A DNA stretch of 64,000 nucleotides from Dehalococcoidia bacterium (GCA_965222445.1 CBDCTY010000002.1:365279-429278); one strand, 5' to 3'. Positions 9,949 to 62,068 are shown, numbered from the stretch's first letter. The notes: generated by a model from the sequence alone, not told the origin. Numbers and translations are program-made.

Positions 9949-9986
9949 TGTAAGCTTTGGTTCGAGTTCCTGGTGCTGGTGGGTAT

Positions 9987-10298
9987 ATGACCTTGCAGAT
10001 TCCCATACCGCAGGAAGAGGTGGCTGCATTTTGCCGCCGCTGGCGGATCACCGAGATGGCGCTCTTCGGGTCCGTGCTGCACGACGACTTTCGACATGAC
10101 AGCGACGTGGATGTGCTGGTCCGCTTTCACCCGAAAGCCCGCCATTCTCTCTTCGACCTCGGGCACATGGAGGAAGAGTTGTCCCGGATATTTGGCAGAG
10201 AGGTGGAACTGGTCGAGCGAGTGGCTGTCGAGCGGAGTCGGAACTATATCCGCCGCAAGGCGGTCCTCCAATCGGCAGAGGTGATTCATGTCTCGTGA
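9987..10298 (+). CDS. mntA: MNT-type nucleotidyltransferase antitoxin (type VII TA)
   Basis: ALFGSVLHDDFRHDSDVDVLV matches the GSxx..DxD nucleotidyltransferase motif. It overlaps the downstream DUF86 gene by 11 nt. The ORF opens at 9957. Confidence 0.85.
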   Translation: MTLQIPIPQEEVAAFCRRWRITEMALFGSVLHDDFRHDSDVDVLVRFHPKARHSLFDLGHMEEELSRIFGREVELVERVAVERSRNYIRRKAVLQSAEVIHVS

Positions 10299-10632
10299 CG
10301 ACGATGCGTACCTGCTAGACATGTTGCTGGCTGCGCCCGACGGTGTGCGCTTCGCAACGGGACTGACGTATGCACAGTTCAATGCGAGCCGCTTGCAGCA
10401 GTACGCGATACTCAAGGCAATTGAGATCGTTGGGGGGGCTGCGGCCCACATCAGCGCGGAGACGAAGGATAGCGAGCCGGATGTTTCCTGGGCAGAGACC
10501 ATCGGTATGCGCAACCGCCTCGTGCATGGGTACTTCGAGGTGGATCTAGAGAGGGTGTGGGACACGGTACAAAACGATCTTCCCAAGCTGATAGCACAGA
10601 TAGAGCCGTCGGTGCCGCCGGACACTGACTAA
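10288..10632 (+). CDS. hepT: HepT-like (DUF86) HEPN ribonuclease toxin
   Basis: RNRLVHGYFEVD is the Rx4HxY HEPN motif. Classic pairing with the upstream MNT gene. Confidence 0.85.
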   Translation: MSRDDDAYLLDMLLAAPDGVRFATGLTYAQFNASRLQQYAILKAIEIVGGAAAHISAETKDSEPDVSWAETIGMRNRLVHGYFEVDLERVWDTVQNDLPKLIAQIEPSVPPDTD

Positions 10633-15075: not shown

Positions 15076-15576
15076 TCAGACCATGAGAGCCGGGCAGAGG
15101 AACACGACGTCAACCCCGTGTCTTTGCAGCGGCTCGCGGTGATGCCACCAACTCCTTCTATCCGAGGCGTTAAGCACCTGGGGTTTGCCTCCGCTGGCCA
15201 GCGCTACGGCGACGAACTTGCGGTCGCCTCTGTCGAACGACGCAAGATCAGGATCGTCAGGGAATTCCTCGAATCCACGAGCTTCGTGAGGGGTTACAGG
15301 CACTGTCCGGCAGAGTCGTTCGTTTGCCTGACTCTCCCAGACCCATAGCATGAAGAAGTCGCCGAACCCAGGCTGACCGGAGAGGCTGAGATTATCCCTG
15401 TACTCTTCGAAAATCAGGTACTTGTTGTCCAGGAGAAGAAGGTACTCCTCGGCCACTATCTGCTTCAACTTGTCGATGCACGTAGATACACACATTTGGT
15501 CGGCCTGCTCGGCTTCGCCATTGGCTACGACGGCGACATTGGTATCCACCACGACCGCCGTCTTCTCGACGCTCAC
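15076..15576 (-). CDS. PIN-like domain nuclease (predicted)
   Basis: N-terminal AVVVDTNVAV, then acidic positions FEEY, DRGDRKFVAVA and NASD, laid out as in PIN domains. The GTG start overlaps the ATPase stop (GTGA). Confidence 0.6.
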   Translation of the reverse strand: MSVEKTAVVVDTNVAVVANGEAEQADQMCVSTCIDKLKQIVAEEYLLLLDNKYLIFEEYRDNLSLSGQPGFGDFFMLWVWESQANERLCRTVPVTPHEARGFEEFPDDPDLASFDRGDRKFVAVALASGGKPQVLNASDRRSWWHHREPLQRHGVDVVFLCPALMV

Positions 15577-16934
15577 TCTGCATCTCTCCGTCTCTTGAGC
15601 GCGGCCTCGCTCATAGCGGCAATCTCGCCGAACTGGTCTCGAAAGAAGTCCTTGGGCCAGTTCGTGATGTTGCCGTAGGGGTCAAGCTCGAGTGTGTCGA
15701 GGATGGAGCTATCGTCATCCGCCCGGCAGAAGAATAGGCCGACATCGTCATTTGAGACATCCTCTTCGGCTATGCGGCGCTGGAGCCTGCGCAGCAGGTG
15801 CTCGCTGTGACTCTCTAGTAAGATCTGCACTCCTCGCTTCTTCCATGCGTCGATGAAGACGTCCGCAAGGCCGGCCTGAATAGCCGGGTGCAGGTGGATT
15901 TCGGGCTGCTCCAGAATCACCGTAGATCCCTTTGGCACGTAGAAGCACAGCACGAGCACGGGGAGTATCTGTGAAACGCCGAAGCCTACGTCTGTGATGA
16001 GCACTTCGGCTGACTTCGGGGACTTTCGAACCCTGACCTCGAAGACAGGGCTGCCTTGGGCGAGGGGCACGACGCGGAAGTCGTGGATCAGTCCTAGCTC
16101 TTTGAGCCACAGGGCCACGTATTCCTCGAGTGTGGCTCGGCGTCTGCCCTTGCCGCGCCCAATCTTCTCACCCCGTTCTCGCGACGCCAGTATCGCGTCC
16201 ACTACGGATTCGCCGGCGCGTCCCATGTCTATGGGCTTCGCACCTGACCAGGTGTATCTGCGTTCCGGCTGGGCTCGCAACGGGCCGAGGTAGTGCACGT
16301 TCTCCAGGCTTTCTTCCAGCGCAAGTTCTAGATCAGATAGGAATCCTGCGTTTGTGAAGTACGCGCGCACTTGATCGGGGAAGCCGTAACATTTGACCGG
16401 TGAGGGCAAATCCCAGGCCCGTCCCCTATTGCGTATGAATTTGAAGTCCGTACCATCGGTGAAGAGGTTGTACTTCGCTTTGGGGTTCCGGCGCATTCCG
16501 AACGTCACGTTGCCGACGCCGTACGACACTTCGTCTACGATCATCGACTTGCTGGAACGGATCATCTCCTCTCGCGAGGCGACCTCGTATCTGATGCGGC
16601 TACTCCGAACGACTCTCTCGTTAGTGCTCGCATCGATTACTCTCAAGGGACTCGGTGGCTTCCAGCGAAGCGATATCTTCAGGGTGCCGCTCGTATCGTG
16701 CTTATGTACTACGCTCTTCAAGTCACCCAGATCCGCAGGTGTCCTTCTGTCTCCGAAGTGGAAGACTATGCCGCGGTCCGGCGAGTCCGCAGTCTGCTTC
16801 AGGAGGAGCAGGGCTTGAATCAGGCTGGTCTTGCCGGAGCTATTGGCGCCAAAGAAGCCCGTGATGGGCTTGAGCGCGATGTCTCCGGTGTTCTTCCAGG
16901 ACTTGAAGTTCTCCAGGCGCATTCGTGTCAGCAT
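15573..16934 (-). CDS. AAA_15/AAA_21-type ABC ATPase with DUF3696-like C-terminus
   Basis: MRLENFKSWK..GFFGANSSGKTS is Walker A, VILEQPEIHLHP is Walker B, LLESHSEHLL is the H-loop, and the C-terminal DPYGNITNWPKDFF is a DUF3696-like tail. Confidence 0.8.
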   Translation of the reverse strand: MLTRMRLENFKSWKNTGDIALKPITGFFGANSSGKTSLIQALLLLKQTADSPDRGIVFHFGDRRTPADLGDLKSVVHKHDTSGTLKISLRWKPPSPLRVIDASTNERVVRSSRIRYEVASREEMIRSSKSMIVDEVSYGVGNVTFGMRRNPKAKYNLFTDGTDFKFIRNRGRAWDLPSPVKCYGFPDQVRAYFTNAGFLSDLELALEESLENVHYLGPLRAQPERRYTWSGAKPIDMGRAGESVVDAILASRERGEKIGRGKGRRRATLEEYVALWLKELGLIHDFRVVPLAQGSPVFEVRVRKSPKSAEVLITDVGFGVSQILPVLVLCFYVPKGSTVILEQPEIHLHPAIQAGLADVFIDAWKKRGVQILLESHSEHLLRRLQRRIAEEDVSNDDVGLFFCRADDDSSILDTLELDPYGNITNWPKDFFRDQFGEIAAMSEAALKRRRDAE

Positions 16935-16953
16935 CGGATTTCACCGTGCGGCA

Positions 16954-17562
16954 TCATCTGTGAGTCTTGCTGTGCGACGGCATGATATTCTCGTACACTT
17001 CTACACCACACTTACTGCACTTTACCATTGCCTTTGGCCGCCACCTTTCAACGGGTGGTGAATTGCTCCGGGCTTGACGCCTAGCCTCGCGTTCTCTGTG
17101 AGAGCTACCGCAGTACGGGTGACCCTCATCGTCCTCACATCGGTCATCGGTGGGGTTGATGATCTTGCGGCAGCCTGTTTCAGAGCAGCGCTCCAGCTCC
17201 GGCAGGTCGCGCTGGCAATGTGGACATGCCGCAGCTAGCTCATGGACCTCCTGGATGCAGTGAGGGCACAGTCGGACGTCGAGAGTCTGCCTGCTAACGC
17301 TTCTTTCCGGCACTGGAAGTGACGGCGATCGCGTGTGGTGGCGGCGACTCTCGTCGGATGTGCGCTGCTCGCTCGGCAATCCGATGAGGACCAGCAGGGC
17401 CAGGATGCTGAAGAAGAGGCCCAGGAAGAACCAGGCTCCGCCGCCTCGTCCCTTCTGGCTCGCCAAGTAGGCGCAGAAGGCTCCGATGATCGCACCTTGA
17501 ATCATGTACAGTACCAGGAATTCCAAGGCTACTCCTCCCGTCGTTGCGGTCTGTCTACCCAA
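16954..17562 (-). CDS. membrane protein with two zinc-ribbon-like Cys clusters
   Basis: Two N-terminal TM helices, then CPHC..x12..CPHC, a Cys-rich middle segment and a C-terminal CSKCG. Start uncertain. Confidence 0.45.
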   Translation of the reverse strand: MGRQTATTGGVALEFLVLYMIQGAIIGAFCAYLASQKGRGGGAWFFLGLFFSILALLVLIGLPSEQRTSDESRRHHTRSPSLPVPERSVSRQTLDVRLCPHCIQEVHELAAACPHCQRDLPELERCSETGCRKIINPTDDRCEDDEGHPYCGSSHREREARRQARSNSPPVERWRPKAMVKCSKCGVEVYENIMPSHSKTHR

Positions 17563-17948
17563 CCGTTCCGTTGCGCTCGATGCAGGCCTTTGAGCCGGGT
17601 CGACGGCAGTCTGGTGAGCCTCTGATTGCGCGGGTCGACTTCTATGCCTACGGATTCCAGGGCGGTCACGCCGAGCAGCGGCTCGGAGTCCTCCTCGCCG
17701 AACACGATCGTCGACCCAACGAGATCCCCCATGAACTCTATCTGGCCCACTGTGACATCCATCCTGACTTCGCTGCCATCGGCAAGTCCGTACACACGCT
17801 GGCCTTTGGGCTGGAGACCTATGGCTTCCAGATGCTGCCTGGGCACGAGAGAGTCGACCGCGCCCGTGTCGACCAGGAAGAGCCCTTCCCAGGTCCTGTC
17901 AGGCTCCGCAGGATTCCGAACGGTAACAGTGACGTGTGTAACTCCCAT
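17529..17948 (-). CDS. retropepsin-like (clan AA) aspartic protease
   Basis: LFLVDTGAVDSLV carries the D-T-G-A active-site motif. Single-lobe size (about 125-139 aa) and a LLGVTALESVG flap-like segment. Confidence 0.7.
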   Translation of the reverse strand: MGVTHVTVTVRNPAEPDRTWEGLFLVDTGAVDSLVPRQHLEAIGLQPKGQRVYGLADGSEVRMDVTVGQIEFMGDLVGSTIVFGEEDSEPLLGVTALESVGIEVDPRNQRLTRLPSTRLKGLHRAQRNGWVDRPQRREE

Positions 17949-46069: not shown

Positions 46070-47065
46070 TTGGATCAACCAAAGGAACCCCTGCCCGACG
46101 AGAAGTCCGCGTACAGACCAACAACCTTCGCAAAATCCCTGCAGACTCATATGGAAGAGTGGCGTTACGGCGTAGACGGCTCACGCGGCCGGTGGTGGGA
46201 TCACTGGTCCCAGGGCATCTACCCAGCATTCCGCTCACTTGCTGAGGAAGTCGTGCGCGCCGATTCGGTCAGGCTACACAAGCATGCCGCACATCTGAGA
46301 AGCTCACAGATGTTCGCCTTGAACCTCTTCCTTCCATTCCATAGGGGAAGCCTGTCGCGACTGTCTGACCGGGTCTGCGAGATTGTCGGCGTCAGGCTGT
46401 CCATTATGGATGTGTGTTTCGAGTGGGTGCCTCCCGGCTCGTTGCTGGGGGAAATCGACGGCGACCGTCCTGCCGGGGGCGAACCCGCAACGGCAGTGGA
46501 TGTCATCCTCCGGGGTCGTCTGGCAGACGACCGCCAGGCGGTGGTCGTGCTGGAGGTAAAACTGAGCGAGTCTGAATTCACACACTGCAAGGGCCGGACC
46601 AGCCCTGCGAACCGCCGGCTAGATGTATGTGAATCAGCCAGTCTTTTCTTTGAGGACCCCAAGGCCTGCTACCTTCGCAGACCGGTGAGGAAGCGGCGGG
46701 ACCGGCGTTACTGGGACATCTTTGCCCTAGAGCATGGCAGTGTGCGCGCAGCGTTCCCTGGCGCCGATCTCGAAGGGGCCTGTCCATTCTCTCAGAGCAT
46801 GCAACAGCCGATGCGCAACCTCGCTATAGCCAGAGGGCTCGTACAGGACAGGGGCTATGCCATCGCGAAGGCCTGGTTCGCGCTCTGTGCGCACGACGGC
46901 AACCAGGATGCCGCTGAGCATTGGGAGCGCTGGAAGCGCCTCTTGCCCGATGCGTCGATGGCTCCTGTGCTTTCGGCATCTGACGTCGTACGTGCCGGCG
47001 AGGACGAGGGACTCGTCGATTGGGCGGCGTGGATGCGCGATCGCTATCGGCTATGTTCGGCATAG
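46070..47065 (+). CDS. hypothetical protein with PD-(D/E)xK-like nuclease motif
   Basis: AVDVILRG..x13..VVVLEVKLSE has D...E-x-K spacing, followed by a Cys-rich segment (HCKG..VCES..ACYL..GACPF). TTG start at 46070, uncertain. Confidence 0.4.
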   Translation: MDQPKEPLPDEKSAYRPTTFAKSLQTHMEEWRYGVDGSRGRWWDHWSQGIYPAFRSLAEEVVRADSVRLHKHAAHLRSSQMFALNLFLPFHRGSLSRLSDRVCEIVGVRLSIMDVCFEWVPPGSLLGEIDGDRPAGGEPATAVDVILRGRLADDRQAVVVLEVKLSESEFTHCKGRTSPANRRLDVCESASLFFEDPKACYLRRPVRKRRDRRYWDIFALEHGSVRAAFPGADLEGACPFSQSMQQPMRNLAIARGLVQDRGYAIAKAWFALCAHDGNQDAAEHWERWKRLLPDASMAPVLSASDVVRAGEDEGLVDWAAWMRDRYRLCSA

Positions 47066-47242
47066 CCGCCATAGTAGCCACCACAGACTTGCCCGACCCT
47101 TGTCCAAGGCTCACTGGAGCCACGCTAATGGGTTGGTCAGGAGCTCGATGCTCGCACTTGTGATGCTGCGAGAGATATTCGGACATAGTCTCTCGACTTC
47201 GCCCGCCTTGTAATGCCACAATGTTAACCTGTGAGGCCACTC

Positions 47243-50200
47243 ATGGTGAATCGCTTCTTCGAACAACCCATACTCAACTCCCCTTACGAGTACCCAGCGA
47301 AGCACTGGGAGCTCGATGATCAGGGCCAGCCGACCCAGCAGATCATCGAGAACCGGCGAGGCGCGGAGTTCATCACGCCCATCCCGAAGCCCAGGAAGCG
47401 AAGGGCGGATAAGCGTCAGCAAGAATTCGTCATCGACGAGGGCAAGGGGCTGTCCACCCAGGAGCAACAGTACGACGTCACGGCGATGGTGAATGAGATT
47501 CGCCGCCAGGTCGACCAGTGGCGGGAGCTGCGCAATCCCAACGACTGGCGCGTCACGCCTGAGACCGCCCGCCTGCTCCAGCATTGGCGACACCACGACT
47601 TCAGCGACATCCGTCCCTTCTTCTGCCAGAGGGAGGCGGCCGAGACGGTCATATGGCTGACCGAGGTTGCGCCTAAGTCCGGGCAGGCCGGAAGGCGACT
47701 CCTCGACCGTCTCGCCAACACCAACAACGACGCCAACCCGGAGCTGTCGCGCCTAGCCCTGAAGCTGGCCACCGGCGCCGGCAAGACCACCGTCATGGCC
47801 ATGATCATCGCGTGGCAGACCATCAACGCCGTCCGGCATCCCAACAGCAGGCGCTTTACGCGGGGTTTCCTGGTAGTGGCTCCGGGCATCACGATCAAGG
47901 ATCGGCTGCGCGTGCTTCAGCCCAACGACCCGGACAGCTACTACGCTAGCAGAGAGCTGGTGCCCAGGGAGATGCTCGGAGACCTTGAACGCGCCAGGAT
48001 CGTCATCACCAACTTCCACGCACTCAGGCTGCGTGACCGTATGGAGCTCTCCAAAGGCGGACGTGCGCTCCTACAGGGCCGCGGGGCCGAGTTGGATACA
48101 GTGGAGACCGAGGGGCAGATGGTCCAGCGCGTCATACCCGATCTCATGGGTATGAGGAACATCTGGGTGCTGAACGACGAAGGACACCACTGCTACCGCC
48201 ACAAGCCGGGCGAGGACGACGAGGACACGCTTAAGGGCGACGACAGGAAAGAGGCCGAGAAGAATAACGAGGCCGCCCGTGTGTGGATATCAGGGCTGGA
48301 AATCGTCAAGCGTAGGATCGGCGTCAGGCAGGTTGTCGACCTGTCAGCGACCCCCTTCTTCCTTCGAGGCTCCGGCTATGCCGAGGGCACCCTGTTTCCC
48401 TGGACGGTCAGCGACTTCTCGCTCATGGACGCCATCGAGAGCGGCATCGTCAAACTGCCCCGCGTGCCGGTGGCTGACAACATCCCAGGCGGCGACATGC
48501 CCAAGTACCGCGTCCTGTGGGAAACCATCCGCGGTGACATGCCCAAGAAGGGCCGGGGCAAAGCGAAGGGGGCTCTCGACCCGCTCAGTCTGCCGGTGCA
48601 GCTTCAGACCGCCCTTCAAGCTCTCTATGGGCACTACGTGAAGACCTACGAAGCCTGGGCCAAGGCAGGAATAACCGCGCCGCCCTGCTTCATAGTGGTC
48701 TGCAACAACACCTCTACCTCTAAGCTGGTCTATGACTATATCTCCGGCTTCTACCGTGAGAACGAGGACGGCTCCGAGACCCTGGAGCAGGGCCGCCTTG
48801 CCCTGTTCCGAAACTTCGATGATCACGGCAACCCGTACCCTATACCCCAAACGGTGCTGATAGACAGCGAGCAGATCGAGTCCGGCGACGCACTGGACAG
48901 GGACTTTCGCAAAATGTCCGCCGATGAGATCGAGCGTTTCCGCAGGGAGAGGGTGGAGCGCACAGGCGACGCCCGGGAGGCCGAGAATATCACCGACCAG
49001 GACCTTCTCAGGGAGGTGATGAACACCGTCGGCAAGGAGGGCCGCCTTGGGCAGTCCATCCGTTGCGTCGTGTCGGTCTCCATGCTCACCGAGGGTTGGG
49101 ACGCGAACACCGTCACACACGTTCTTGGCGTGCGAGCCTTCGGGACCCAGCTTCTGTGCGAGCAAGTCATTGGCCGCGCCTTGCGCCGACAGTCCTACGA
49201 ACTCAACGACGATGGACTGTTCGATGTCGAGTACGCTGACGTGCTTGGCGTACCGTTCGACTTCACGGCGAGGCCGGTCGTCGTAAAGCCCCAGCAGCCT
49301 CGCCAGACCGTACAGGTAAAGGCGGTTCGGCCCGAACGGGACCATCTAGAAATCCGGTTCCCCAGGGTGTCAGGCTATCGCACCGATCCGCCCAGGGAAG
49401 AGCTCGCGGCCGAGTTCACCGACGACTCCTACCTGGAGCTTACGCCAGAGTTGGTCGGCCCGTCGACGACTAGGAACGAGGGCATCATCGGCGAGGGTGT
49501 CGATCTCAACCTGGTGCACACCGGCGATCTCAGGCGCTCCACCTTGCTGTTCCACCTCACGCAGCGACTGCTATACACCAAGTGGCGTGACTCAAACGAA
49601 GACCCCAAGCTGCACCTATTCGGGCGGCTAAAGGGAATCGCAAGACAGTGGCTGGACGGCTACCTAGTCTGCAAGGGCGGCACCTATCCGGCACAGCTCA
49701 TGTACCAAGACTTGGCGGACAGGGCTTGCGAGATCATCACGGCCGCCATCACCAACAGCCGCGCGAATGGGTATCCCGTCAAGGCGCTGCTCGATTCGTT
49801 CAACCCGACCGGATCGACCGTGCACGTGAACTTCAGCACGTCCAAGACCAGCCGCTGGGAGACGGACTCTCGCAAGTGCCACGTGAACTGGGTCGTCCTC
49901 GACAGCGACTGGGAGGCCGAGTTCTGCCGCGTGGCCGAGGCCCATCCCAGGGTGCGGGCATACGTGAAGAATCACAATCTGGGTCTTGAGGTGCCGTACC
50001 GCTCCGGCTCCATTGCACGCACCTACATCCCCGACTTCATCGTCCAGGTAGACGACGGACGCGGGGAAGACGACCCTCTTAACCTTGTCGTGGAGATCAA
50101 GGGCTACCGCAACGAGGACGCCAAGGCGAAGAAGCTCACCATGGAGACGTACTGGGTCCCCGGCGTGAACAACCTTCGCCAGTACGGACGGTGGGCCTTC

Positions 50201-50383
50201 GCAGAGTTCACGGACGTTTACGACATTGAAGCCGGGTTCGACGGCCTGGTACAGAGGTTCGTGGGGGGATCCAGCATTCCGGACTACAGCGCTCTCAGCG
50301 CCAAGGAGCTGCTCGCGTCCTGTCCCATTGACGAGGAGTATTTGGTCCGGCCTCGCGAGTTCCCGAGAGACATCGATTTTTGA
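47243..50383 (+). CDS. res: type III-like restriction enzyme Res subunit (SF2 helicase plus C-terminal PD-(D/E)xK nuclease)
   Basis: MVNRFFEQPILNSPYEYP N-terminus, LATGAGKTTVMA (motif I), VLNDEGHHCY (DEGH, motif II), SVSMLTEGWDANTVTHVLG (motif V/VI region) and PDFIVQV..x13..VVEIKGY nuclease core. Confidence 0.85.
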   Translation: MVNRFFEQPILNSPYEYPAKHWELDDQGQPTQQIIENRRGAEFITPIPKPRKRRADKRQQEFVIDEGKGLSTQEQQYDVTAMVNEIRRQVDQWRELRNPNDWRVTPETARLLQHWRHHDFSDIRPFFCQREAAETVIWLTEVAPKSGQAGRRLLDRLANTNNDANPELSRLALKLATGAGKTTVMAMIIAWQTINAVRHPNSRRFTRGFLVVAPGITIKDRLRVLQPNDPDSYYASRELVPREMLGDLERARIVITNFHALRLRDRMELSKGGRALLQGRGAELDTVETEGQMVQRVIPDLMGMRNIWVLNDEGHHCYRHKPGEDDEDTLKGDDRKEAEKNNEAARVWISGLEIVKRRIGVRQVVDLSATPFFLRGSGYAEGTLFPWTVSDFSLMDAIESGIVKLPRVPVADNIPGGDMPKYRVLWETIRGDMPKKGRGKAKGALDPLSLPVQLQTALQALYGHYVKTYEAWAKAGITAPPCFIVVCNNTSTSKLVYDYISGFYRENEDGSETLEQGRLALFRNFDDHGNPYPIPQTVLIDSEQIESGDALDRDFRKMSADEIERFRRERVERTGDAREAENITDQDLLREVMNTVGKEGRLGQSIRCVVSVSMLTEGWDANTVTHVLGVRAFGTQLLCEQVIGRALRRQSYELNDDGLFDVEYADVLGVPFDFTARPVVVKPQQPRQTVQVKAVRPERDHLEIRFPRVSGYRTDPPREELAAEFTDDSYLELTPELVGPSTTRNEGIIGEGVDLNLVHTGDLRRSTLLFHLTQRLLYTKWRDSNEDPKLHLFGRLKGIARQWLDGYLVCKGGTYPAQLMYQDLADRACEIITAAITNSRANGYPVKALLDSFNPTGSTVHVNFSTSKTSRWETDSRKCHVNWVVLDSDWEAEFCRVAEAHPRVRAYVKNHNLGLEVPYRSGSIARTYIPDFIVQVDDGRGEDDPLNLVVEIKGYRNEDAKAKKLTMETYWVPGVNNLRQYGRWAFAEFTDVYDIEAGFDGLVQRFVGGSSIPDYSALSAKELLASCPIDEEYLVRPREFPRDIDF

Positions 50384-50820
50384 CGTATCTGCTCGATACC
50401 AACGTGATCTCGGAACTGCGCAAGGGCGACCGCTGTGACGCCAACGTGACGGCTTGGTACGCAGGCGTGGAGGAAACGGACATATTCCTTAGCGTACTGG
50501 TGCTTGGTGAGATGCGCAGAGGCATCGAGTGGATACGGAGGCGTGATCCGCAGCAGACCGTCGTTCTGGAACGCTGGCTCGAAGAGACCGCTCTGAGGTT
50601 CGCCGGTCGGATAATGCCCGTCGACGACATGATTGCCGAACTTTGGGGGAGAACATACTATGTGCGCAACGTCCCAGTGGTCGACGGCCTGTTGGCTGCC
50701 ACCGCCATGGCGCATGACATGACCCTGGTAACTCGAAATGTCTCGGACGTTGAAGGGCTGGGTGTACGAGTGCTCGACCCCTTCAGAGGAAACGACAACT
50801 CGCACGAATTAGTCCAATAG
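50380..50820 (+). CDS. vapC: VapC-family PIN-domain toxin
   Basis: YLLDTNVISELRK, GEMRRG and LLAATAMAHDMTLVTRNVSD. The TTG start overlaps the res stop (TTGA). Confidence 0.9.
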   Translation: MTYLLDTNVISELRKGDRCDANVTAWYAGVEETDIFLSVLVLGEMRRGIEWIRRRDPQQTVVLERWLEETALRFAGRIMPVDDMIAELWGRTYYVRNVPVVDGLLAATAMAHDMTLVTRNVSDVEGLGVRVLDPFRGNDNSHELVQ

Positions 50821-50837
50821 AGAGGACAACGACTCTC

Positions 50838-53495
50838 ATGCCAAAAGGACGAGCCAAACGGCCCAAGTCAGTCGAGACCCTCACACACGAGGAGGCCCGG
50901 CGGAGAAACCTGCCGTCAGCCGAGCACCAGCCTCTGATGCGAGAGGAGGAGCAGAGCGCCGTTCGCGTGGCCTACGAGCGGCGCAACCGCGATCTGGATC
51001 CTCAGCTCGTGTGGCGGGGCAAGGACGAGCAGGACTCGGAGGACCTGGAGGTCAACGTCCCGCCGCTGTACATCCAGGAGCGGACCCACCCGAAGGTACT
51101 GGTCGACGACCTGATGCGGCAAACCGGCAGCGGCGGGACATCGGAGGACGAAGGGCGACAGCAGGGGTTCGCGGACCTGTTCGCCGACTTCAACGGCCTG
51201 CCGTCCGAGGACGCGAAGACCGAGTTCTACCAGCACGACGCCAACTGGTCGAACCGCATGATCCTCGGCGACAGCCTGCAGGTGATGGCGTCGCTCGCCG
51301 AGCGCGAGGGACTGCGGGGCAAGGTGCAGTGCATCTATGTCGACCCGCCCTACGGCATCAAGTTCAACTCCAACTTCCAGTGGTCCACGACCAGCCGCGA
51401 CGTGCGTGACGGCAACGCCGCTCACATCACCCGCGAGCCGGAGCAGGTGAAGGCATTCCGCGACACTTGGCGCGACGGGATTCACTCGTACCTGACCTAC
51501 CTGCGCGACCGCCTAACCGTGGCCCGAGACTTGCTCTCCGATTCGGGTTCGATCTTCGTGCAGATTGGGGATGAGAACGTTCATCGTGTGCGAGCACTCA
51601 TGGACGAGGTATTTGGGGACGGAAACTTCATCAGTCTTATAACCTATCGCACGAGCAGCGGAACCACGCAACAGAGTTCAGTCAAACGCGTATCGGACTA
51701 CATAGTTTGGTACTGTAAAGACTCGGACTCGATTAAGTTCCGGAGGCTACTTGAGGATAAGCACGTTGATACCAGTATGTACAATCAACTGGAACTTGAG
51801 AATGGGACTCGACGTCCTATGACCGCAGACGAAAGACGTGACCCTTCAACTTGCCCTGCCGACGCCCGACCATACCAGAAGCTTCCAGTTCATTCTATGG
51901 CTTCTGGAGACCATGAGCCACGGGCGATTTTTGGAGCCGTCTGGCGCATACCGCCAACTTCTCATTGGCGGTATGCGCCAGACGGCTTTACGAGACTTTA
52001 CAAAGCCTCACGCATCCATCCTGACAGGACAGCCCTCAGAGCGGTCTACCATCACGATGACTATCCAGCCTTCGAAATCTCAAACTCATGGATCGATACT
52101 GGCCCTGAAATTGAGAAGTCTTATGTAGTTCAGACTTCAACGTCACCAATTGAACGCTGCATCCTGATGACGACCGATCCCGGAGACTTAGTGCTGGATC
52201 CAACCTGTGGGTCAGGCACCACCGCCCATGCCTCTGAGAAGTGGGGCCGCCGCTGGATCACCATCGACACCTCTCGTGTGGCACTCGCCCTAGCCCGTGC
52301 CCGTATCATGGGAGGCCGATATCCGTACTACCTACTCTCAGACAGCCGTGATGGGCAAGTCAAGCAGGCGGAGATCGAGCGCAAGGCCGCATCAGAGTCT
52401 CCTACATACGGGGATATCCGCCAAGGCTTCGTCTACGAGAGGGTGCCGCACATCACGCTACGGGCCATCGCCAACAACACGGAGATCGACGTTATCTGGG
52501 AGGACGCCCAGGAGGATTTGGAGTCCCTTAGAGAGGAGTTGAACCACGTGCTCGGCGAGTCGTGGGAGGAGTGGGAAGTTCCCCGCGATGCGGATAAGGT
52601 CTGGCCGGATGACGCACGAAGTCTTCACGCCCAATGGTGGGAGCGACGCATCGCGCGCCAGAAGGAGATCGACACTTCCATAGCCGCCAAGGCCGACTAC
52701 GAGAACCTATACGACAAGCCCCATGAGGACCGAAGCAAGGTAAGGGTCGCGGGGCCATTCACGGTCGAGAGCATCTCACCACACCGTGTCCTTGGAGTAA
52801 ACGAGGACGGTGACGTCATCGCAGAGTCGTCCAACGGTTACGGGAGCGAATATGACTTCGCTCAGGTCATGCTGGACAACCTGGGAACCTCTGGCGTACA
52901 GCAGGCCAATAGAGAGGACAGGATAGAGTTCACGTCCATCACCCCCTGGCCGGGGCGTTTGGTGTGCGCTGATGGGCGCTACGTGGAGGGCGGCGAGGAG
53001 AACGGCATCGAGCGCCGCGCCGCGATCTTCATCGGCCCCGAGTTCGGCACGGTGTCCCGCCCGGACCTCGTGGAAGCGGCGCGCGAGGCCGCTGACGGCG
53101 GATTCGATGTCCTAATCGCCTGTGCCTTCAACTACGAGGCGCACACCACCGAGTTCGAGAGCCTTGGGCGGGTCCCTGTGCTGAAGGCTCGCATGAACGC
53201 CGACCTCCACATGGCCGAAGACCTGAAGAACACGGGCAAGGGCAACCTGTTCGTGATCTTCGGAGAGCCGGACATCGACATCCTCGACGCGGACGATGGC
53301 CGGATCCAGGTAAGGGTCAACGGCGTGGACGTGTTCCATCCCAATACGGGCGAAGTACGCAGCGACGGGCCGGAGGGAATCGCCTGCTGGTTCATCGACA
53401 CCGACTACAACGAAGAGGCGTTCTTCGTCCGTCACGCCTACTTCCTGGGAGCCAGCGACCCATACAAGTCGCTGAAGACCACGCTCAGGGCTTGA
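50838..53495 (+). CDS. mod: type III-like DNA methyltransferase Mod (N6/N4 class), 3' end frameshifted
   Basis: LVWRGKDE, NRMILGDSLQVM, IYVDPPYG (motif IV) and DPTCGSGTTAHA (motif I). The conserved-looking C-terminal tail continues in another frame (53494-53631). Confidence 0.85.
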   Translation: MPKGRAKRPKSVETLTHEEARRRNLPSAEHQPLMREEEQSAVRVAYERRNRDLDPQLVWRGKDEQDSEDLEVNVPPLYIQERTHPKVLVDDLMRQTGSGGTSEDEGRQQGFADLFADFNGLPSEDAKTEFYQHDANWSNRMILGDSLQVMASLAEREGLRGKVQCIYVDPPYGIKFNSNFQWSTTSRDVRDGNAAHITREPEQVKAFRDTWRDGIHSYLTYLRDRLTVARDLLSDSGSIFVQIGDENVHRVRALMDEVFGDGNFISLITYRTSSGTTQQSSVKRVSDYIVWYCKDSDSIKFRRLLEDKHVDTSMYNQLELENGTRRPMTADERRDPSTCPADARPYQKLPVHSMASGDHEPRAIFGAVWRIPPTSHWRYAPDGFTRLYKASRIHPDRTALRAVYHHDDYPAFEISNSWIDTGPEIEKSYVVQTSTSPIERCILMTTDPGDLVLDPTCGSGTTAHASEKWGRRWITIDTSRVALALARARIMGGRYPYYLLSDSRDGQVKQAEIERKAASESPTYGDIRQGFVYERVPHITLRAIANNTEIDVIWEDAQEDLESLREELNHVLGESWEEWEVPRDADKVWPDDARSLHAQWWERRIARQKEIDTSIAAKADYENLYDKPHEDRSKVRVAGPFTVESISPHRVLGVNEDGDVIAESSNGYGSEYDFAQVMLDNLGTSGVQQANREDRIEFTSITPWPGRLVCADGRYVEGGEENGIERRAAIFIGPEFGTVSRPDLVEAAREAADGGFDVLIACAFNYEAHTTEFESLGRVPVLKARMNADLHMAEDLKNTGKGNLFVIFGEPDIDILDADDGRIQVRVNGVDVFHPNTGEVRSDGPEGIACWFIDTDYNEEAFFVRHAYFLGASDPYKSLKTTLRA

Positions 53496-53631
53496 GATCG
53501 ACGCAGATGCCTGGGCGACGCTCCACAGCGACACCTCGCGCCCGTTCAACAAGCCCGACTCCAGCCGCATCGCCGTCAAAGTCATCAATCACCTCGGCGA
53601 CGAGGTGCTGAAGGTGTTCCGGGTAGAATGA
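53494..53631 (+). pseudogene. displaced C-terminal 45 codons of mod
   Basis: EIDADAWATLHSDTSRPFNKPDSSRIAVKVINHLGDEVLKVFRVE* sits in the frame shifted by one base. Removing one T at 53492-53493 joins ..LKTTLRA to EIDADAW. Confidence 0.6.
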
Positions 53632-53700
53632 ACTGGCTTAACTCAAACGGGAGTTGTGTAGGATGAACTGGGAAGGCATTGCTGCCTCGGGGACTACAGG

Positions 53701-56472
53701 ATGACGTTTACGAGACAGGACGCTGACAACTGGGCGAAAGAGGTGCCGGGTGCGCGGTGGCTCAAGGCCGATCTGCACATCCACACCGTGGACGACCTTC
53801 CGGGACGCAGGGCGAAGTTCCCGGCCGACGTTAACGGGGACCCGCAGGCGTCCAATACCATTTCGGCCTACGCCAAGCGGTTCCTTCAGAGCGCGGCGGA
53901 ACGTGGCGTGCGGGTGCTTGGCATCACACCGCACTCGCCCCGCGTCGGAACCGCAGCGGAGACCAGTGTGGTGTGGAGGATAGTGGAAGAGTGGAACAGC
54001 GGCGTCGATGACGATGATGTCCCGTTCCGGGAAAAGATATACGCTGTGTTCCCCGGCTTCGAACCGTCCTTCAACCAAGGTCGCAGCGGACTACACATGC
54101 TGTTCCTGTTCGATCCGGAGATAGGCCGCACCGACTATCTAAAGGCCTTCGACCTTGTGATGGGTGGGGTGTCGCCGTGGAATGGGCGCGAGCTTCAACT
54201 GTCCGGGAGGGGCGCCAGTGATGCGTTCAGTGAACTCCGCAAGTTCCACCGTCGTGAAGGTCGCAGGTCAGATGATGGTGGCTTCCAATGGAACTATATG
54301 ACGCTTGCGCCTCACATCGACCAAGAGAAGGGACTGCTTGGAGCACAGGGGATGCATGTGCTGAACCTCTTCCCACACTCTGAGGTGGCCGGCCTAGAGC
54401 TCGGTGATGAAAAGTTGCCCGAGGATTACATGGGAGGCGGTTTGGATCTGGCGAAAAGAATGGCGGAGCTTCGGCAGGCGTTCTACCACAGTAGTGATGC
54501 CTATAGGATCGACGAAATTGGCAAGCGCCATACATGGCTCAAGCTCGCCAGTCCTAGGATAGAGGCGTTGCGGCAGGCGTTCATCGCCAGCGAATCAAGA
54601 ATGCGGATAGGATACGAACGTGGTGAAGACGGCACCTTGTACGAAGCTCCAGATCCCCCCGACGTAACTATGAACAAACGTCCGTGGCTGAAGTCCGTCA
54701 GGGTCTCCGGCAAGGCTTCGTTCTTCGGCGCCGGCGGTGAAGACGGACAGGGCAGCCATTTCGACTTCAGCCCCGACCTTACTTGCGTCATTGGCGGCAG
54801 CATGACGGGCAAGAGCACCCTCCTCGACGGTCTGAGAGTGCATGTCGACGCCCCGCTGCCAGAGGACGACAGCGTGAGGAAACAGGTTGAGGCGCGCGGC
54901 AGGGACCGCTTTCTGAGTGGCTCTGCGGAGGTTCTTCTCGACTGTCCTGGTCGGGATCCGACTGCGGCGCCTCGTGAGCAGTGGCCTGCGGAGTTCTACA
55001 CGCAGACCGAGTTGCAGAGGCTGGCGCAGAACCCCGAGGCTGTAGAGGACATTCTCGCCAGGCTGGTGGCGTCTGAGACACAAGACATCATGGAACGTGA
55101 GGGACGCTTGGGCGAGCTCGACGGGGAATTGACTCGCGCCGCCGGTCGTCTCGCGAAACTAGGCGACGACCAGGCGGATGCCGAGCAGGCATTCCAGAGA
55201 AGCCAGAGAGCGGCAGAGGAGCTTGCCGCATTTTCGGATGCCGGCGTGGAGAGCTTGAATCGCGTGTCCAGCGATCTGAGCCGCTCGCGGGGTTCTGCAA
55301 AGGCTGCGACTGAGCTGGCGGGCGAGGTGGACAGGCTCTTGGAATCTATATCGGTGGTAGACATACCGGATATCGACGACGGCCTTACCGGAGTGCTCGA
55401 AGCCGCGGGGATAGTTGAGGGCGAAGTGGACTTCCGCGCGCGGTGGGACCGTATTCGACGCTCGCTAAGGTCCGCTAAGGACGAGTTGGGTGCGGCGAGT
55501 GTTGTGCTCAAGTCCATAGTTGATGCGCTGGAAGACCACGAGGATAGTGTCCGTGTACGGGTAGACCGCGATTTGGCGGCCCGTGAACTGGATGGAGCGA
55601 GGATCAATCAGCTCCAGGAGCTGACCGCTCAGGCTTCACTGCTGGAGAGCTATCAGGCGCATCTCAATGAACAGCGAGGCACGCTTCTCCGCGCTAAGGA
55701 CAAGTTCGAAACACTGCGCCAAGAGCGAAGGGACCTTGTGCAGCAGCAGCGATGCGCGTTCGACCGTGTGATGGATGCGGTCCATTCCCAGTTCGACGGC
55801 CGAATAGAGGCCCGTCGGATCGATGAAGGCCGCAAAGACACTCTGGATCGTCTTCTCAGGGCGTTGAATCAGAGGGGGATCACACGATGGTGGAATGATT
55901 TGACGGATGAGCAGCGGCCCGCGCCCGATGACCTGCTCGAAAAGCTAGCCTCTGGGCATTTGGAAGAAGTCGGAATGAGCGAAGCAGTGGGTGAAACGTT
56001 CCGGGTGCAATTCACCCCATCGAGACAGCGCGAACTGGCAGCCCTCCGTTGTCCAGATAACTACGTGCTGGAATTCATGATGGGAGATGGCAGCTATCGG
56101 CCGCTAAGGGACCTTTCCGGCGGCCAGCGGGTGAACCTCTTGCTCTCTCTCCTGTTGGAGACAAATGACGAGCGGCCTCTGGTAATTGATCAGCCCGAGG
56201 ATGAACTGGACAACCGGTTTTTGTTCGAGACGATGCTTCCTGCACTCAAGCGGCTCAAGGGACGCAGGCAGATCATAGTAGCGACGCACAACGCGAATAT
56301 AGTGGTCAACGGGGACGCCGACCAAGTGATTCAATTGGAAGCGACCGCCGACCATGGATATGTTGCACGTTCAGGGGCCATCGAAGAGCCCGCCGTCCGA
56401 GATGCTATCGTCCAGACGGTTGATGGAGGTGACGAGGCATTTCGTCTGCGTCGGTTGAAGTACGGCTTCTAG
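53701..56472 (+). CDS. PHP-domain phosphoesterase fused to SMC/ABC-like ATPase (Ppl/TrlF-like architecture)
   Basis: KADLHIHTVDD and LGITPHS are PHP metal ligands and GGSMTGKST is Walker A. A coiled-coil of about 350 aa follows, then LSGGQR (signature-like), LVIDQPEDELD (Walker B) and VATHNANIVVNGDAD. Confidence 0.8.
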   Translation: MTFTRQDADNWAKEVPGARWLKADLHIHTVDDLPGRRAKFPADVNGDPQASNTISAYAKRFLQSAAERGVRVLGITPHSPRVGTAAETSVVWRIVEEWNSGVDDDDVPFREKIYAVFPGFEPSFNQGRSGLHMLFLFDPEIGRTDYLKAFDLVMGGVSPWNGRELQLSGRGASDAFSELRKFHRREGRRSDDGGFQWNYMTLAPHIDQEKGLLGAQGMHVLNLFPHSEVAGLELGDEKLPEDYMGGGLDLAKRMAELRQAFYHSSDAYRIDEIGKRHTWLKLASPRIEALRQAFIASESRMRIGYERGEDGTLYEAPDPPDVTMNKRPWLKSVRVSGKASFFGAGGEDGQGSHFDFSPDLTCVIGGSMTGKSTLLDGLRVHVDAPLPEDDSVRKQVEARGRDRFLSGSAEVLLDCPGRDPTAAPREQWPAEFYTQTELQRLAQNPEAVEDILARLVASETQDIMEREGRLGELDGELTRAAGRLAKLGDDQADAEQAFQRSQRAAEELAAFSDAGVESLNRVSSDLSRSRGSAKAATELAGEVDRLLESISVVDIPDIDDGLTGVLEAAGIVEGEVDFRARWDRIRRSLRSAKDELGAASVVLKSIVDALEDHEDSVRVRVDRDLAARELDGARINQLQELTAQASLLESYQAHLNEQRGTLLRAKDKFETLRQERRDLVQQQRCAFDRVMDAVHSQFDGRIEARRIDEGRKDTLDRLLRALNQRGITRWWNDLTDEQRPAPDDLLEKLASGHLEEVGMSEAVGETFRVQFTPSRQRELAALRCPDNYVLEFMMGDGSYRPLRDLSGGQRVNLLLSLLLETNDERPLVIDQPEDELDNRFLFETMLPALKRLKGRRQIIVATHNANIVVNGDADQVIQLEATADHGYVARSGAIEEPAVRDAIVQTVDGGDEAFRLRRLKYGF

Positions 56473-56482
56473 GAGGCCGGGA

Positions 56483-57670
56483 ATGGAATGGCTGAGAATC
56501 CTTGAGTGTATCGAACGAGGTGAGGATAGACACACCGAGTTCAAACGTGGGCTTGGCGATCTGTCGGCGGTCGGCAAATCAGTTTGCGCCTTCGCGAACA
56601 CTGAGGGAGGCGTCATCATACTAGGCGTAACCGATACTACCCGGCAGATTGTGGGTGTCAAGGAGGACGCTGAACAGGTCCAAGAGAAGTTAGCGTCGTT
56701 TCTTCAGTCTGGCTGCAGCTCACCGGTTTCTGCTCGCGCCGGGCGACATGAGAGTCCGAACGGTTGGGTCCACTGGCTTGAGGTCCCTCGCCAGCGCGGC
56801 TTTGAGCCCTTACGGTACGGTGGTCGAGTGTGGGTACGCCGGGAACGGAGCAGCGTCGAGCCATCTCCGACTGAGCTTCAAGAGCTATACAACGCCTTTG
56901 GGTACATCTTCACTGAGGAACGCACGATACAAGCTGCGACGGCGGCTCATGTCGATCTTCAAGTCTTCCACGCCTATCTCCAAGAGGTCGGACTCGACAT
57001 CGAGGACGAACCCCAGCCCGATGATGAGGACGACCTCCGTAATCGCGGTGTGGTAGCGGAGTTGGGAGGCGTGTTGCATCCTACGCTCTACGGCGTGCTG
57101 GCATTTGGCAAGGAGCCACAAAGCTATCCGCAAACACAAAACTTCCGGGTAGAGTGTGTCGCATACGAGGGCGACGACCGGGCTTCGAATGTGCTGCAAG
57201 TGGCTGAAGCCTCAGGCCGTCTGGACGAACAAGTACTACGAGCGGTCGGCTGGTTCTCGAGCCTCGGGCGGTTCGAGTCGTACCGTGGACTGATCAGGGA
57301 AGACCATCCGTTGCTGCCACAGGCGGCTCTTCGAGAGTCGCTGGTAAACGCTGTGGTGCACAGGGACTACGCAATCACCGGATCGAAGGTGCTGCTTGAG
57401 GTTTTCACTCGGCACGTAGACGTGACGAGCCCGGGCGGATTGCCCAATCACATGAGTGTCGAGAGTGTCCAGGCCGGCGGTCATCCGCGGTCGAGGAACG
57501 AGTCGATGGCGAACTACATGCTGGTGATGGGTTACATGGAGCAGCGGGGCAGGGGTTGGCCTGTGATGCGCAGGGCAATGCGCGAGTTCAACGGAACCGA
57601 ACCTGAGATTACGCAGGGAGACTCTGGCGCATTTGTCAGATTGAGATTCCATCTCGAATCATTAAAGTAG
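56483..57670 (+). CDS. AlbA_2 (Schlafen-type) DNA-binding domain plus HATPase_c_4-like domain protein
   Basis: GEDRHTEFKRGL..VCAFANTEGGVIILGV is AlbA_2. NAVVHRDY..TSPGGLP..RSRNESMANYM..GYMEQRGRG is HATPase_c_4-like. Confidence 0.8.
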   Translation: MEWLRILECIERGEDRHTEFKRGLGDLSAVGKSVCAFANTEGGVIILGVTDTTRQIVGVKEDAEQVQEKLASFLQSGCSSPVSARAGRHESPNGWVHWLEVPRQRGFEPLRYGGRVWVRRERSSVEPSPTELQELYNAFGYIFTEERTIQAATAAHVDLQVFHAYLQEVGLDIEDEPQPDDEDDLRNRGVVAELGGVLHPTLYGVLAFGKEPQSYPQTQNFRVECVAYEGDDRASNVLQVAEASGRLDEQVLRAVGWFSSLGRFESYRGLIREDHPLLPQAALRESLVNAVVHRDYAITGSKVLLEVFTRHVDVTSPGGLPNHMSVESVQAGGHPRSRNESMANYMLVMGYMEQRGRGWPVMRRAMREFNGTEPEITQGDSGAFVRLRFHLESLK

Positions 57671-57674
57671 TGAC

Positions 57675-61001: not shown

Positions 61002-61656
61002 ATGACGATGGACGAGGCAGAGGCCCGAGAGATACTGGCGGGTCCCACGCAACCCTTGGCCCCAGGCCCCCGCCAGCTCGTCGACCCACCTGAGGTCGCA
61101 AGGTACGCACAAAGGGGAGACCCCGACATTATTGACTGGCCTGGCAGGGTAGTCACTCGCCAAGACCTTATGATGGCCAGCGGGGACCCTCGGGACTGGT
61201 TCAGGTATCGTCATAGAGAAAAGGCATACGAAGAGGCGTGGCATGAGTTCGTAGACGCCCGCAGCCGCCGCAAGGACTTCATGGCGGGTTTCGATTGGAA
61301 TCAGATTCTGGTGCTGGGAGACTATGGCTCAGGCAAGACGACCTTGGCGACCCACCTGGCCAGGCATTTCTTTGGGTTGGGCCATCCAGTGTTTTCCAAA
61401 CGCCTCGTGCCTGTTCGGTTGGCGTCTGGAGCACGAGGCAATGTATACGGCCTTGGGGTTCATGCCCAAAGCCTCTGTGCTGCTGATTGATGAGTCCTCG
61501 GCGGCGCTGGCCTCTCGTATGGGCCACTCGATTGCCGTCACCAGCTCCACAGAAATGAACCCAAATGTGCGCAAGCAGAATGGGATCGTCGTCTATATGT
61601 CAGCGCAGGACTGGCAGATTGCCCCCAGCATCAGGCGCGATTGCAAGGAAGTTTAG
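61002..61656 (+). pseudogene. Zot/pI-like P-loop NTPase gene, frameshifted
   Basis: Frame 1 gives ILVLGDYGSGKTTLATHLARHFFGLGHPVFS (Walker A). Frame 2 gives ASCLFGW..ASVLLIDESSAAL (Walker B) and NVRKQNGIVVYMSAQDWQIAPSIRRDCKEV. The shift lies at the TTTTCCAAA run, 61392-61400. Confidence 0.5.
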
Positions 61657-61965
61657 ATGCCGGTGCCCAAGGCCGACCTCACAGTCTCGGACAACCGAGA
61701 TGACGACGACGAGGGCAGAGCCGACTACGAGACGCCATTCACAGGGAAGGTCAGCGGTGGAAACGACCCCGACAACTTCCGCCTGGCGTGGCACGTTTGG
61801 GACGACTACCCGTTCAGAAAAGCCAACCTGATAGAAGGCCCCGACCCAACCGATAAGGGCGGGTTCGGCCCACCTGAAGAGGATCGAACCACCCCGCGTG
61901 CCATCGCGGTGTTAAGGGTCACAGCTCCATACACGATGCGGGATAGGTGGCCTCGGCAGACTTGA
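61657..61965 (+). CDS. hypothetical acidic protein
   Basis: Its ATG abuts the stop of the preceding frame (TAGATG). 102 aa with a DNRDDDDEGRADYE stretch. Confidence 0.35.
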   Translation: MPVPKADLTVSDNRDDDDEGRADYETPFTGKVSGGNDPDNFRLAWHVWDDYPFRKANLIEGPDPTDKGGFGPPEEDRTTPRAIAVLRVTAPYTMRDRWPRQT

Positions 61966-62068
61966 GCGACTGGGGACAGTCGCTCATAGACAACAATCGC
62001 TAGCTATCCCCTTATAGTGGTCATCAGTATTAATGTTGCAAAACTCCCATCCCCGCATCCAAGAGTAG

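Follow-up and report, generated by a model that had tools for sequence, protein, structure and literature searches.

The stretch of DNA analysed in this study is a 64,000-nucleotide segment of an uncultured Dehalococcoidia bacterium (GCA_965222445.1, CBDCTY010000002.1:365279-429278; hereafter, the window), and its positions 15,076 to 17,948 carry an ABC ATPase gene coupled to a gene for a small PIN-like protein, together with two further genes. These four tightly packed genes, all on the minus strand, fill the interval from an SDR gene to a BNR/sortilin gene. In the direction of transcription, they are an aspartic protease open reading frame (ORF) at 17529-17948 (139 aa), an ORF for a protein with zinc ribbons and transmembrane (TM) segments, here called ZnTM, which in its longest form begins at a TTG codon at 17562 (16954-17562), the ATPase ORF at 15573-16934 (453 aa), and the PIN-like ORF at 15076-15576 (166 aa, GTG start). 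An initial annotation, made from the sequence, had proposed all four, and each was found on the minus strand where it had been placed. The stop of the ATPase gene and the start of the PIN gene share the 4 nt GTGA at 15573..15576 of the minus strand (read as gaGTGAgc), the overlap from which translational coupling had been proposed.

Two details of the layout had to be corrected. The distance from the ZnTM stop to the ATPase start is 19 nt and not 20 nt. The overlap of the protease gene with ZnTM is obtained only with the longest ORF; a TTG at 17526, preceded by the Shine-Dalgarno motif GGGAGGAG, comes 2 nt after the end of the protease gene, at a position equivalent to the starts of the homologues. 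With this likely start, ZnTM is a protein of 190 aa (16954..17526, minus strand), and the overlap is therefore an artefact of the longest ORF, the two genes simply abutting. The SDR gene itself is only 13 nt from the protease gene, so tight spacing, which is usual in so compact a genome, does not by itself define a unit here.

Compared with its flanks, the segment is richer in AT, as had been noted before. The GC content of the four genes is 0.575-0.617 against 0.687 for the BNR/sortilin gene and 0.664 for the SDR gene, and their GC content at third codon positions (GC3) is 0.68-0.72 (ZnTM 0.68, the ATPase-PIN pair 0.69-0.72, the protease 0.71) against 0.885 and 0.911, respectively. This dip is unexceptional: among stretches of equal size in the window, 10-12% have a GC content no higher than this, and a more extensive low-GC island occupies 38-62 kb. 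The low GC was thus rejected as proof of a recent transfer. Nothing above chance came up when 14.5-19.2 kb was searched for promoters and terminators, for tRNAs and for direct or inverted repeats at the flanks, and no mobile-element signature was found in that region, with no repeats, tRNA gene or integrase at the borders.

The ATPase and PIN genes were found to match the two models of an anti-phage system that has already been described. Payne, Hughes, Fineran & Jackson (bioRxiv 10.1101/2024.01.29.577857) reported HEC-03 (Hma-embedded candidate 03), which is composed of an ABC ATPase and a VapC-like PIN protein. In Escherichia coli, it cut plaquing by orders of magnitude for at least two phages; defence needed both genes, and the system was toxic upon induction with isopropyl β-D-1-thiogalactopyranoside (IPTG) (10.1101/2024.01.29.577857). 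The tested pair came from Pseudomonas cichorii ATCC 10857 (WP_025259138.1 and WP_025259137.1), and HEC-03 is already included in PADLOC-DB v2 as models PDLC04147 and PDLC04148. The window ATPase matched PDLC04148 (HEC-03B) at 1.4e-154, with residues 1-449 aligned to profile positions 1-452 of 458, and the 166-aa protein matched PDLC04147 (HEC-03A) at 1.3e-32, with residues 8-163 aligned to profile positions 3-153 of 159. The next-best PADLOC matches of the ATPase were NsnB of Menshen (7.1e-61) and PDC-M55A (8.9e-60), while the AriA, GajA, AbiLi and PtuA models matched at far lower scores. By BLASTP, the ATPase is 44% identical over 399 aa to the P. cichorii HEC-03 ATPase (E 5e-120), and the PIN protein is 38% identical over 157 aa to its P. 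cichorii counterpart (E 3e-29). We noticed that the letters of the two components are inverted between the sources: in the text of the paper HEC-03A is the ATPase and HEC-03B the PIN protein, while the PADLOC model HEC-03A matches the PIN protein and HEC-03B the ATPase.

Taken together, these data suggest, with a probability of about 0.85, that the ATPase and PIN genes are a free-standing copy of the two-gene system HEC-03. Both have the same two-gene architecture, in which the gene for a small PIN-fold protein follows that for a DUF3696-tailed ABC ATPase; the motifs EQPEIHLHP and ESHSEHLLRRLQRRIAEE are common to the window and the tested protein, and relatives of the window copy are embedded in Hma systems. 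The initial annotation had proposed a defence system variant with the logic of an ABC ATPase plus a nuclease. A defence module of that logic is indeed present; it is, however, no undescribed ATPase-PIN variant, since it is HEC-03, which is already known and has been validated. The window copy differs from the tested one in its host, in a lineage-specific ZnTM gene upstream, and in the first acidic residue of the PIN protein, which is Asp (VVDTNV) in the window and Glu (VVETNV) in P. cichorii.

The HEC-03 ATPase (15573..16934, minus strand; identified by PADLOC, Pfam and BLASTP) consists of an AAA_15/AAA_21 core and a C-terminal DUF3696 tail, in agreement with the domain assignment first made from the sequence. 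The Pfam search gave AAA_15 at 1.2e-22, AAA_21 at 2.2e-22 and DUF3696 (PF12476) at 5.3e-10. The motifs that had been quoted for it all exist in the translation. The Walker A motif GANSSGKTS (residues 29-37; 16824..16850, minus strand) has G29, N31, S32, G34 and K35 invariant in 70 homologues, the Walker B region VILEQPEIHLHP covers residues 339-350 (15885..15920, minus strand), and the tail contains DPYGNITNWPKDFF. The DUF3696 tail (PF12476) extends over residues 394-435 (15630..15755, minus strand), with G421, W426, P427, F430 and F431 invariant. Near-invariant in the 70 homologues are the Walker A G-x-N-S-S-G-K-T/S, YLGPLR, TDVGFGVSQxLP, the Walker B, ESHSEHLL and the tail G-N-I-x-N-W-P-x-x-F-F; a signature-like motif and the H-loop are kept together with Walker A and B. 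With E <= 1e-50 as the limit, the family counts at least 7,689 proteins, named 'DUF3696 domain-containing protein' by NCBI.

The Walker B of this family is unusual, as it reads E-Q-P-E. E342 was found in 70 of 70 homologues, Q343 in 68 and E/D345 in all 70, and the tested P. cichorii ATPase has the same stretch, FMEQPEIHLHP. Related OLD-type ABC ATPases have D-E-P-E at Walker B, and the replacement of the catalytic Glu by Gln is the classic hydrolysis-deficient state of ABC ATPases. Because the Gln stands at the position of the catalytic base, the motif suggests that the protein is not a fast ATPase but a nucleotide-gated switch, which may bind ATP with little hydrolysis. The authors of the HEC-03 study left the question of ATP hydrolysis open (10.1101/2024.01.29.577857).

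The 166-aa protein (15076..15576, minus strand) was assigned as the HEC-03 PIN-fold protein by PDLC04147, an AlphaFold 2 (AF2) model, Foldseek and its conserved acidic residues. The AF2 model, built from a 35-member alignment, has a predicted local distance difference test score (pLDDT) of 90 and a predicted TM-score (pTM) of 0.87, and shows strands alternating with helices. The top Foldseek matches in the PDB were PIN/NYN domains with probabilities of 0.9-1.0, namely FitB (2h1c), SMG6, KHNYN, HARP and VapC4, and the Mycobacterium tuberculosis VapC 7vwo matched the model with a probability of 1.0 and a TMt of 0.60. Four candidate catalytic residues, D11 (15544-15546), E58 (15403-15405), D118 (15223-15225) and D139 (15160-15162, all on the minus strand), are invariant in 35 diverse homologues; D50 is also invariant and D115 almost so. 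The PIN fold and the acidic tetrad proposed at the outset are thus supported. The family comprises at least 1,335 proteins and has no Pfam annotation.

We scanned one genome per GTDB species, which gave 484 relatives, and 80 loci were fetched (related loci carry numbers with the prefix L below). Their hosts include Dehalococcoidia, Caldilineaceae, Latescibacterota, Acidobacteriota, Planctomycetota, Gemmatimonadota, Gammaproteobacteria, Hymenobacter and cyanobacteria, and the phyla in which the two genes are adjacent include Chloroflexota, Pseudomonadota, Bacteroidota and Cyanobacteria. The closest relative among the fetched loci, L005, belongs to a Dehalococcoidia metagenome-assembled genome. 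A conserved partnership emerged from this survey of neighbourhoods: the ATPase homologue adjoins a PIN gene in all of 84 related loci and lies upstream of it in 83, and the 4-nt overlap is present in 56 of the 69 loci in which it could be scored. A large upstream ORF proved to be HmaB (E = 0) in eight of the nine loci tested that had such an ORF. Clustering of the neighbours placed HmaB upstream in 11 loci and a protein with HEPN_Swt1 and DUF499 downstream in 12, so that the published Hma embedding is reproduced in 11-12 relatives. The family is also harboured by eleven plasmids.

On the Aeromonas veronii plasmid NZ_AP022291.1 (L093, 5566-8194), the ATPase-PIN pair is followed, 3 nt on, by an RNA ligase family gene (PF09414, 2.2e-33). 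The plasmid is conjugative, and Hok/Gef and AbiEii genes are located close to the pair. The RNA ligase beside the Aeromonas pair is consistent with RNA being the target of HEC-03. It also hints, together with ZnTM in Dehalococcoidia, that different lineages attach different third genes to the system.

The architecture of HEC-03 may be compared with that of other systems in which an ATPase is joined to an effector. The nearest is Menshen, in which, according to AlphaFold 3 (AF3) models, two DUF3696 tails of NsnB flank the PIN-like domain of NsnC (PMC12065111). The window ATPase matches the NsnB model at the value given above, both combine an ABC core and a DUF3696 tail, and the partner protein is PIN-like in fold, as is the NsnC domain predicted to dock between the tails (PMC12065111). 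However, the window has no NsnA (ParB-DUF262), as neither ZnTM nor the protease has a DUF262/ParB domain or a PADLOC match to NsnA. The window PIN protein is a single domain of 166 aa that keeps D-E-D-D, while the PIN-like domains of NsnC are without catalytic residues and NsnC adds a C-terminal nuclease effector, and the HEC-03 model fits the window ATPase far better than the NsnB model does. In PARIS (AriA/AriB), Septu (PtuA/PtuB) and Gabija (GajA/GajB), too, an ABC ATPase is paired with a nuclease effector, and the window ATPase gives weaker matches to AriA, GajA and PtuA. Their ATPase models score at least 100 orders of magnitude worse than the HEC-03 model, and their effectors are TOPRIM (AriB and the C-terminus of GajA) or HNH (PtuB) domains and not a PIN fold. 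The 166-aa protein gave no TOPRIM or HNH match, and no helicase gene is adjacent to the pair (GajB of Gabija is a UvrD helicase). Membership in Menshen, PARIS, Septu and Gabija was rejected, as their defining partners are absent.

We infer from these analogies that a chain of sequestration and release is the most likely mechanism of HEC-03. The DUF3696 tail may serve as the docking surface for the PIN protein, as the AF3 models of NsnB and NsnC would predict. The ATPase would form an oligomer in which paired DUF3696 tails hold the PIN protein in an inactive state. The PIN nuclease would then be released or activated by a cue from the phage, acting in concert with the nucleotide state of the ATPase, and it may cut RNA and arrest the infected cell (abortive infection). 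Because the PIN protein keeps D-E-D-D and there is no extra effector domain, unlike in NsnC, it is probably the effector itself.

Several observations weigh against the assignment to HEC-03 and its reading as an ATPase-driven RNase. The window copy is free-standing between housekeeping genes, outside any Hma system; its flanks are the SDR, protease and ZnTM genes on one side and the BNR gene on the other. The Hma embedding was the context in which HEC-03 was discovered, and the PADLOC definition does not demand it. The E-Q dyad of the Walker B may mean weak or no ATP hydrolysis, which makes an ATPase cycle uncertain. For the PIN protein, the Foldseek E-values are modest (6e-3 to 0.1) and the TM-scores are 0.4-0.6; the Pfam and NCBIfam searches gave no PIN match; a sequence-profile search of the PDB returned only spurious SH3 matches (E > 0.4); and hhalign against a canonical PF01850 PIN protein encoded elsewhere in the window (50380-50820) gave a probability of 0.5%. 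As these sequence-level tests failed, the PIN assignment is a structural one, supported by the predicted model together with the conserved acidic residues and the published analysis. The sequestration and release of the PIN protein and the RNA target are likewise drawn by analogy to Menshen, PARIS, Septu and VapC.

As the PIN fold resembles VapC and FitB, it may also be asked whether the pair is mainly a toxin-antitoxin or addiction module, which would stabilise a mobile or variable region, with a VapC-like toxin checked by the ATPase. The predicted fold and the arrangement of the acidic active site are shared with VapBC and FitAB, whose members FitB (2h1c) and M. tuberculosis VapC (7vwo) are the top structural matches. 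The toxicity of HEC-03 when induced in E. coli, the presence of relatives on conjugative plasmids next to Hok/Gef and AbiEii genes and the annotation of AAA_21 as an AbiEii-type family all point in the same direction. However, no VapB or FitA antitoxin gene was found at the window, the upstream partner being the 453-aa ATPase, which is unrelated to VapB, and the window PIN protein has no PF01850 match in Pfam; a classical VapBC was rejected owing to the absence of the antitoxin. Anti-phage activity has been measured directly for a homologue with 38-44% identity, and relatives are repeatedly embedded in Hma defence systems. Although the roles in addiction and defence are not mutually exclusive, we consider it quite improbable that addiction is the main one. 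A housekeeping module for DNA repair or RNA processing, with a RecF/SMC-like ATPase and a nuclease, is exceedingly improbable. The weak matches to SMC_N, RecF and Rad50 on which it would be based are limited to the N-terminal P-loop, where they cover some 45 residues, and their scores are far under the cutoffs of those families. The distribution of the pair over phyla is patchy, its genomic positions vary, its GC3 is atypical and it has been lost in one locus (L091), and no universal syntenic conservation across Dehalococcoidia was observed.

The ZnTM gene, which lies directly upstream of the pair, encodes a membrane zinc-finger protein. It begins with a two-TM hairpin (17377-17526, minus strand; AF2 TM helices at residues 2-24 and 29-49), continues with Cys-rich zinc ribbons (17119-17280, minus strand), seen in the sequence with only weak Pfam zinc-ribbon matches, and ends in a C2H2-like finger (16957-17034, minus strand), for which AF2 predicted a beta-beta-alpha fold at residues 167-189. 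The TM hairpin was modelled with confidence and the linker as disordered, with an overall pTM of 0.30. The ribbon has a conserved CPHC...CPHC, followed by one to three C-x-K-I-I-N-P-T-D-D-R-C-E-D-D-E-G-N-P-Y-C modules; the C2H2-like finger is present in some members, including the window copy. The family is small: it has 49 members, almost all of which show 46% identity or more in the aligned part. ZnTM had no PADLOC match, and a scan of JGI metagenomes with the family alignment gave 279 pattern matches, none of which was confirmed. Residues 1-111, covering the TM hairpin and the first zinc ribbon, match phrog_8436, a phage family of unknown function, at 2.7e-15, while tblastn against the 50,697 GenBank phage records of INPHARED found no match.

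ZnTM is best read as an optional, lineage-restricted accessory neighbour of HEC-03 and not as a core component, and its companionship with HEC-03 in this lineage is the only potentially new element of the locus. The alternative is a three-gene variant in one Dehalococcoidia lineage, with ZnTM as a functional partner of the pair; it could be a sensor at the position equivalent to NsnA or a regulator that tempers toxicity. Three different genomic contexts share the order ZnTM-ATPase-PIN, with 16-69 nt between the genes, namely SDR..BNR (the window and L090), PGM/DUF2298..SelA (L002 and L089) and DUF2335..2-Hacid_dh (L085-L087), and in the latter two a divergent intergenic region immediately precedes ZnTM, as would be expected for the head of an operon. 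Of the 49 members of the family, at least 14 are on the same contig as a HEC-03 gene, four of six members sampled irrespective of HEC-03 adjoined it or its remnant, and the GC3 of ZnTM matches that of the pair. On the other hand, ZnTM is missing from about 78 of the 84 HEC-03 loci, including the nearest relatives L005, L094 and L004; in L005 the pair is 96-99% identical to that of the window (96.6% at the nucleotide level) and only 72 bp stand in the place of ZnTM. ZnTM has decayed in L001 and L003 with the pair intact, and conversely the HEC-03 pair was deleted in L091 (6001-6817), where ZnTM survives along with the N-terminal 74 aa of the ATPase as a stub, and SelA follows directly. ZnTM is found alone in L088 and L092 and downstream of the pair in L006, and the tested HEC-03 functions as two genes. 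A functional partnership of the three genes is possible for one Dehalococcoidia lineage and not in general, and even there we hold it as a minority view. We regard a functional link of ZnTM with HEC-03 as rather unlikely, and it is doubtful that HEC-03 gained in ZnTM, with its two-TM hairpin, Cys4 ribbons and C2H2-like finger, a third, membrane-anchored component at the operon head, like NsnA in Menshen.

The fourth gene (17529..17948, minus strand) encodes a clan AA (retropepsin-like) aspartic protease, which matched the NCBIfam family TIGR03698 (clan_AA_DTGF) at 6.7e-24, with 84.3 bits against a cutoff of 57.35, and the Pfam gag-asp_proteas at 7.3e-07; it has the active-site motif LFLVDTGAVDS, with the DTGA motif region at 17844-17891. 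Its participation in a four-gene system would be in line with its position, as it abuts HEC-03 or ZnTM in all five SDR..BNR loci (the window, L005, L006, L090 and L094), with its GC3, which resembles that of the islet and not that of the flanks, and with its coupling to ZnTM through a 2-nt gap in the window and a 4-nt overlap in L006. The distribution tells otherwise. In both other contexts of ZnTM and HEC-03 there is no adjacent protease, as it lies 4 kb off on the opposite strand in L001-L003 and is absent from L085-L087, and none of the 78 more distant loci among the 84 has it. Its place relative to the pair flips: the order is protease-ZnTM-ATPase-PIN in the window and L090, protease-ATPase-PIN in L005 and L094, and ATPase-PIN-protease-ZnTM in L006. 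Its best PADLOC match was not significant (0.041), and the SDR gene is spaced just as tightly. Since the protease stands beside HEC-03 only in the SDR..BNR context, it is a neighbour through local synteny and not part of the system. The four-gene reading is already largely refuted by this distribution, and we consider it very improbable. The two- to four-gene system that had been envisaged thus holds as a two-gene pair and fails for four genes.

Alignments of the window with L005, L006, L090 and L094 indicated that the SDR and BNR genes are conserved anchors and that the content between them is variable; it includes genes for a TPP enzyme, a sulfotransferase, an M24 peptidase and an NB-ARC STAND NTPase. 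The last of these is an 878-aa NB-ARC/NACHT STAND NTPase (GYGGIGKTSLA; PF00931, 2.1e-12) in the interval between ZnTM and BNR of L006 (7636-10272, minus strand). Its occurrence in the same gap suggests that the interval from SDR to BNR is a variable, defence-prone hotspot. A further observation concerns L001 and L002, which are near-identical contigs from one sample. A pair of genes for a HindIII-type restriction enzyme and an N6/N4 methylase was found only in L001 (434-2300), where it sits upstream of the HEC-03 locus.

The window also carries other defence-related loci and a transposase gene, all on the plus strand. A second, larger defence island with low GC3 extends over 46070-59696. It encodes a REase-ARP/PD-(D/E)XK nuclease (46070-47065), a ResIII-like helicase of 1050 aa (47231-50383), the canonical PF01850 PIN protein of 146 aa mentioned above (50380-50820), whose gene overlaps the helicase gene by 4 nt and is wedged before the methylase gene, a type III-like methylase of 885 aa (50838-53495), a Ppl-like ABC ATPase of 923 aa (53701-56472), a Schlafen AlbA_2/HATPase_c_4 protein (56483-57670) and a GajB-like UvrD helicase (57675-59696). 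The order of helicase, PIN, methylase and ATPase resembles a Hma-type system with an embedded gene; the HmaB model gave no match in this island, and the helicase was without a PADLOC match. An MNT/HepT (nucleotidyltransferase/HEPN RNase) toxin-antitoxin pair with low GC3 is located at 9957-10298 and 10288-10632 (PF01909, 6e-13; PF01934, 5.4e-26; PDC-S09, 2e-21). At the end of the low-GC region, there is an IS66-family transposase gene (62491-63936; PF03050, 1.2e-31), and the small ORFs ahead of it, at 61324-62455, could be its accessory genes.

As the flagged candidate is HEC-03, which is present in PADLOC-DB and experimentally validated, the correct step is to file it under that name, and no discovery effort is needed. 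For those who work on HEC-03, our results describe a very large family that spans multiple phyla, with a strongly kept 4-nt overlap, an E-Q-P-E Walker B and variable third genes. Should ZnTM prove functional, it could anchor the ATPase-PIN complex to the membrane or gate it there, for example to sense the entry of the phage genome or to damp toxicity. The form with ZnTM would then be a Menshen-like version of HEC-03, with sensor, transducer and effector, and it would offer a handle on how HEC-03 senses infection, a question that the original paper left open.

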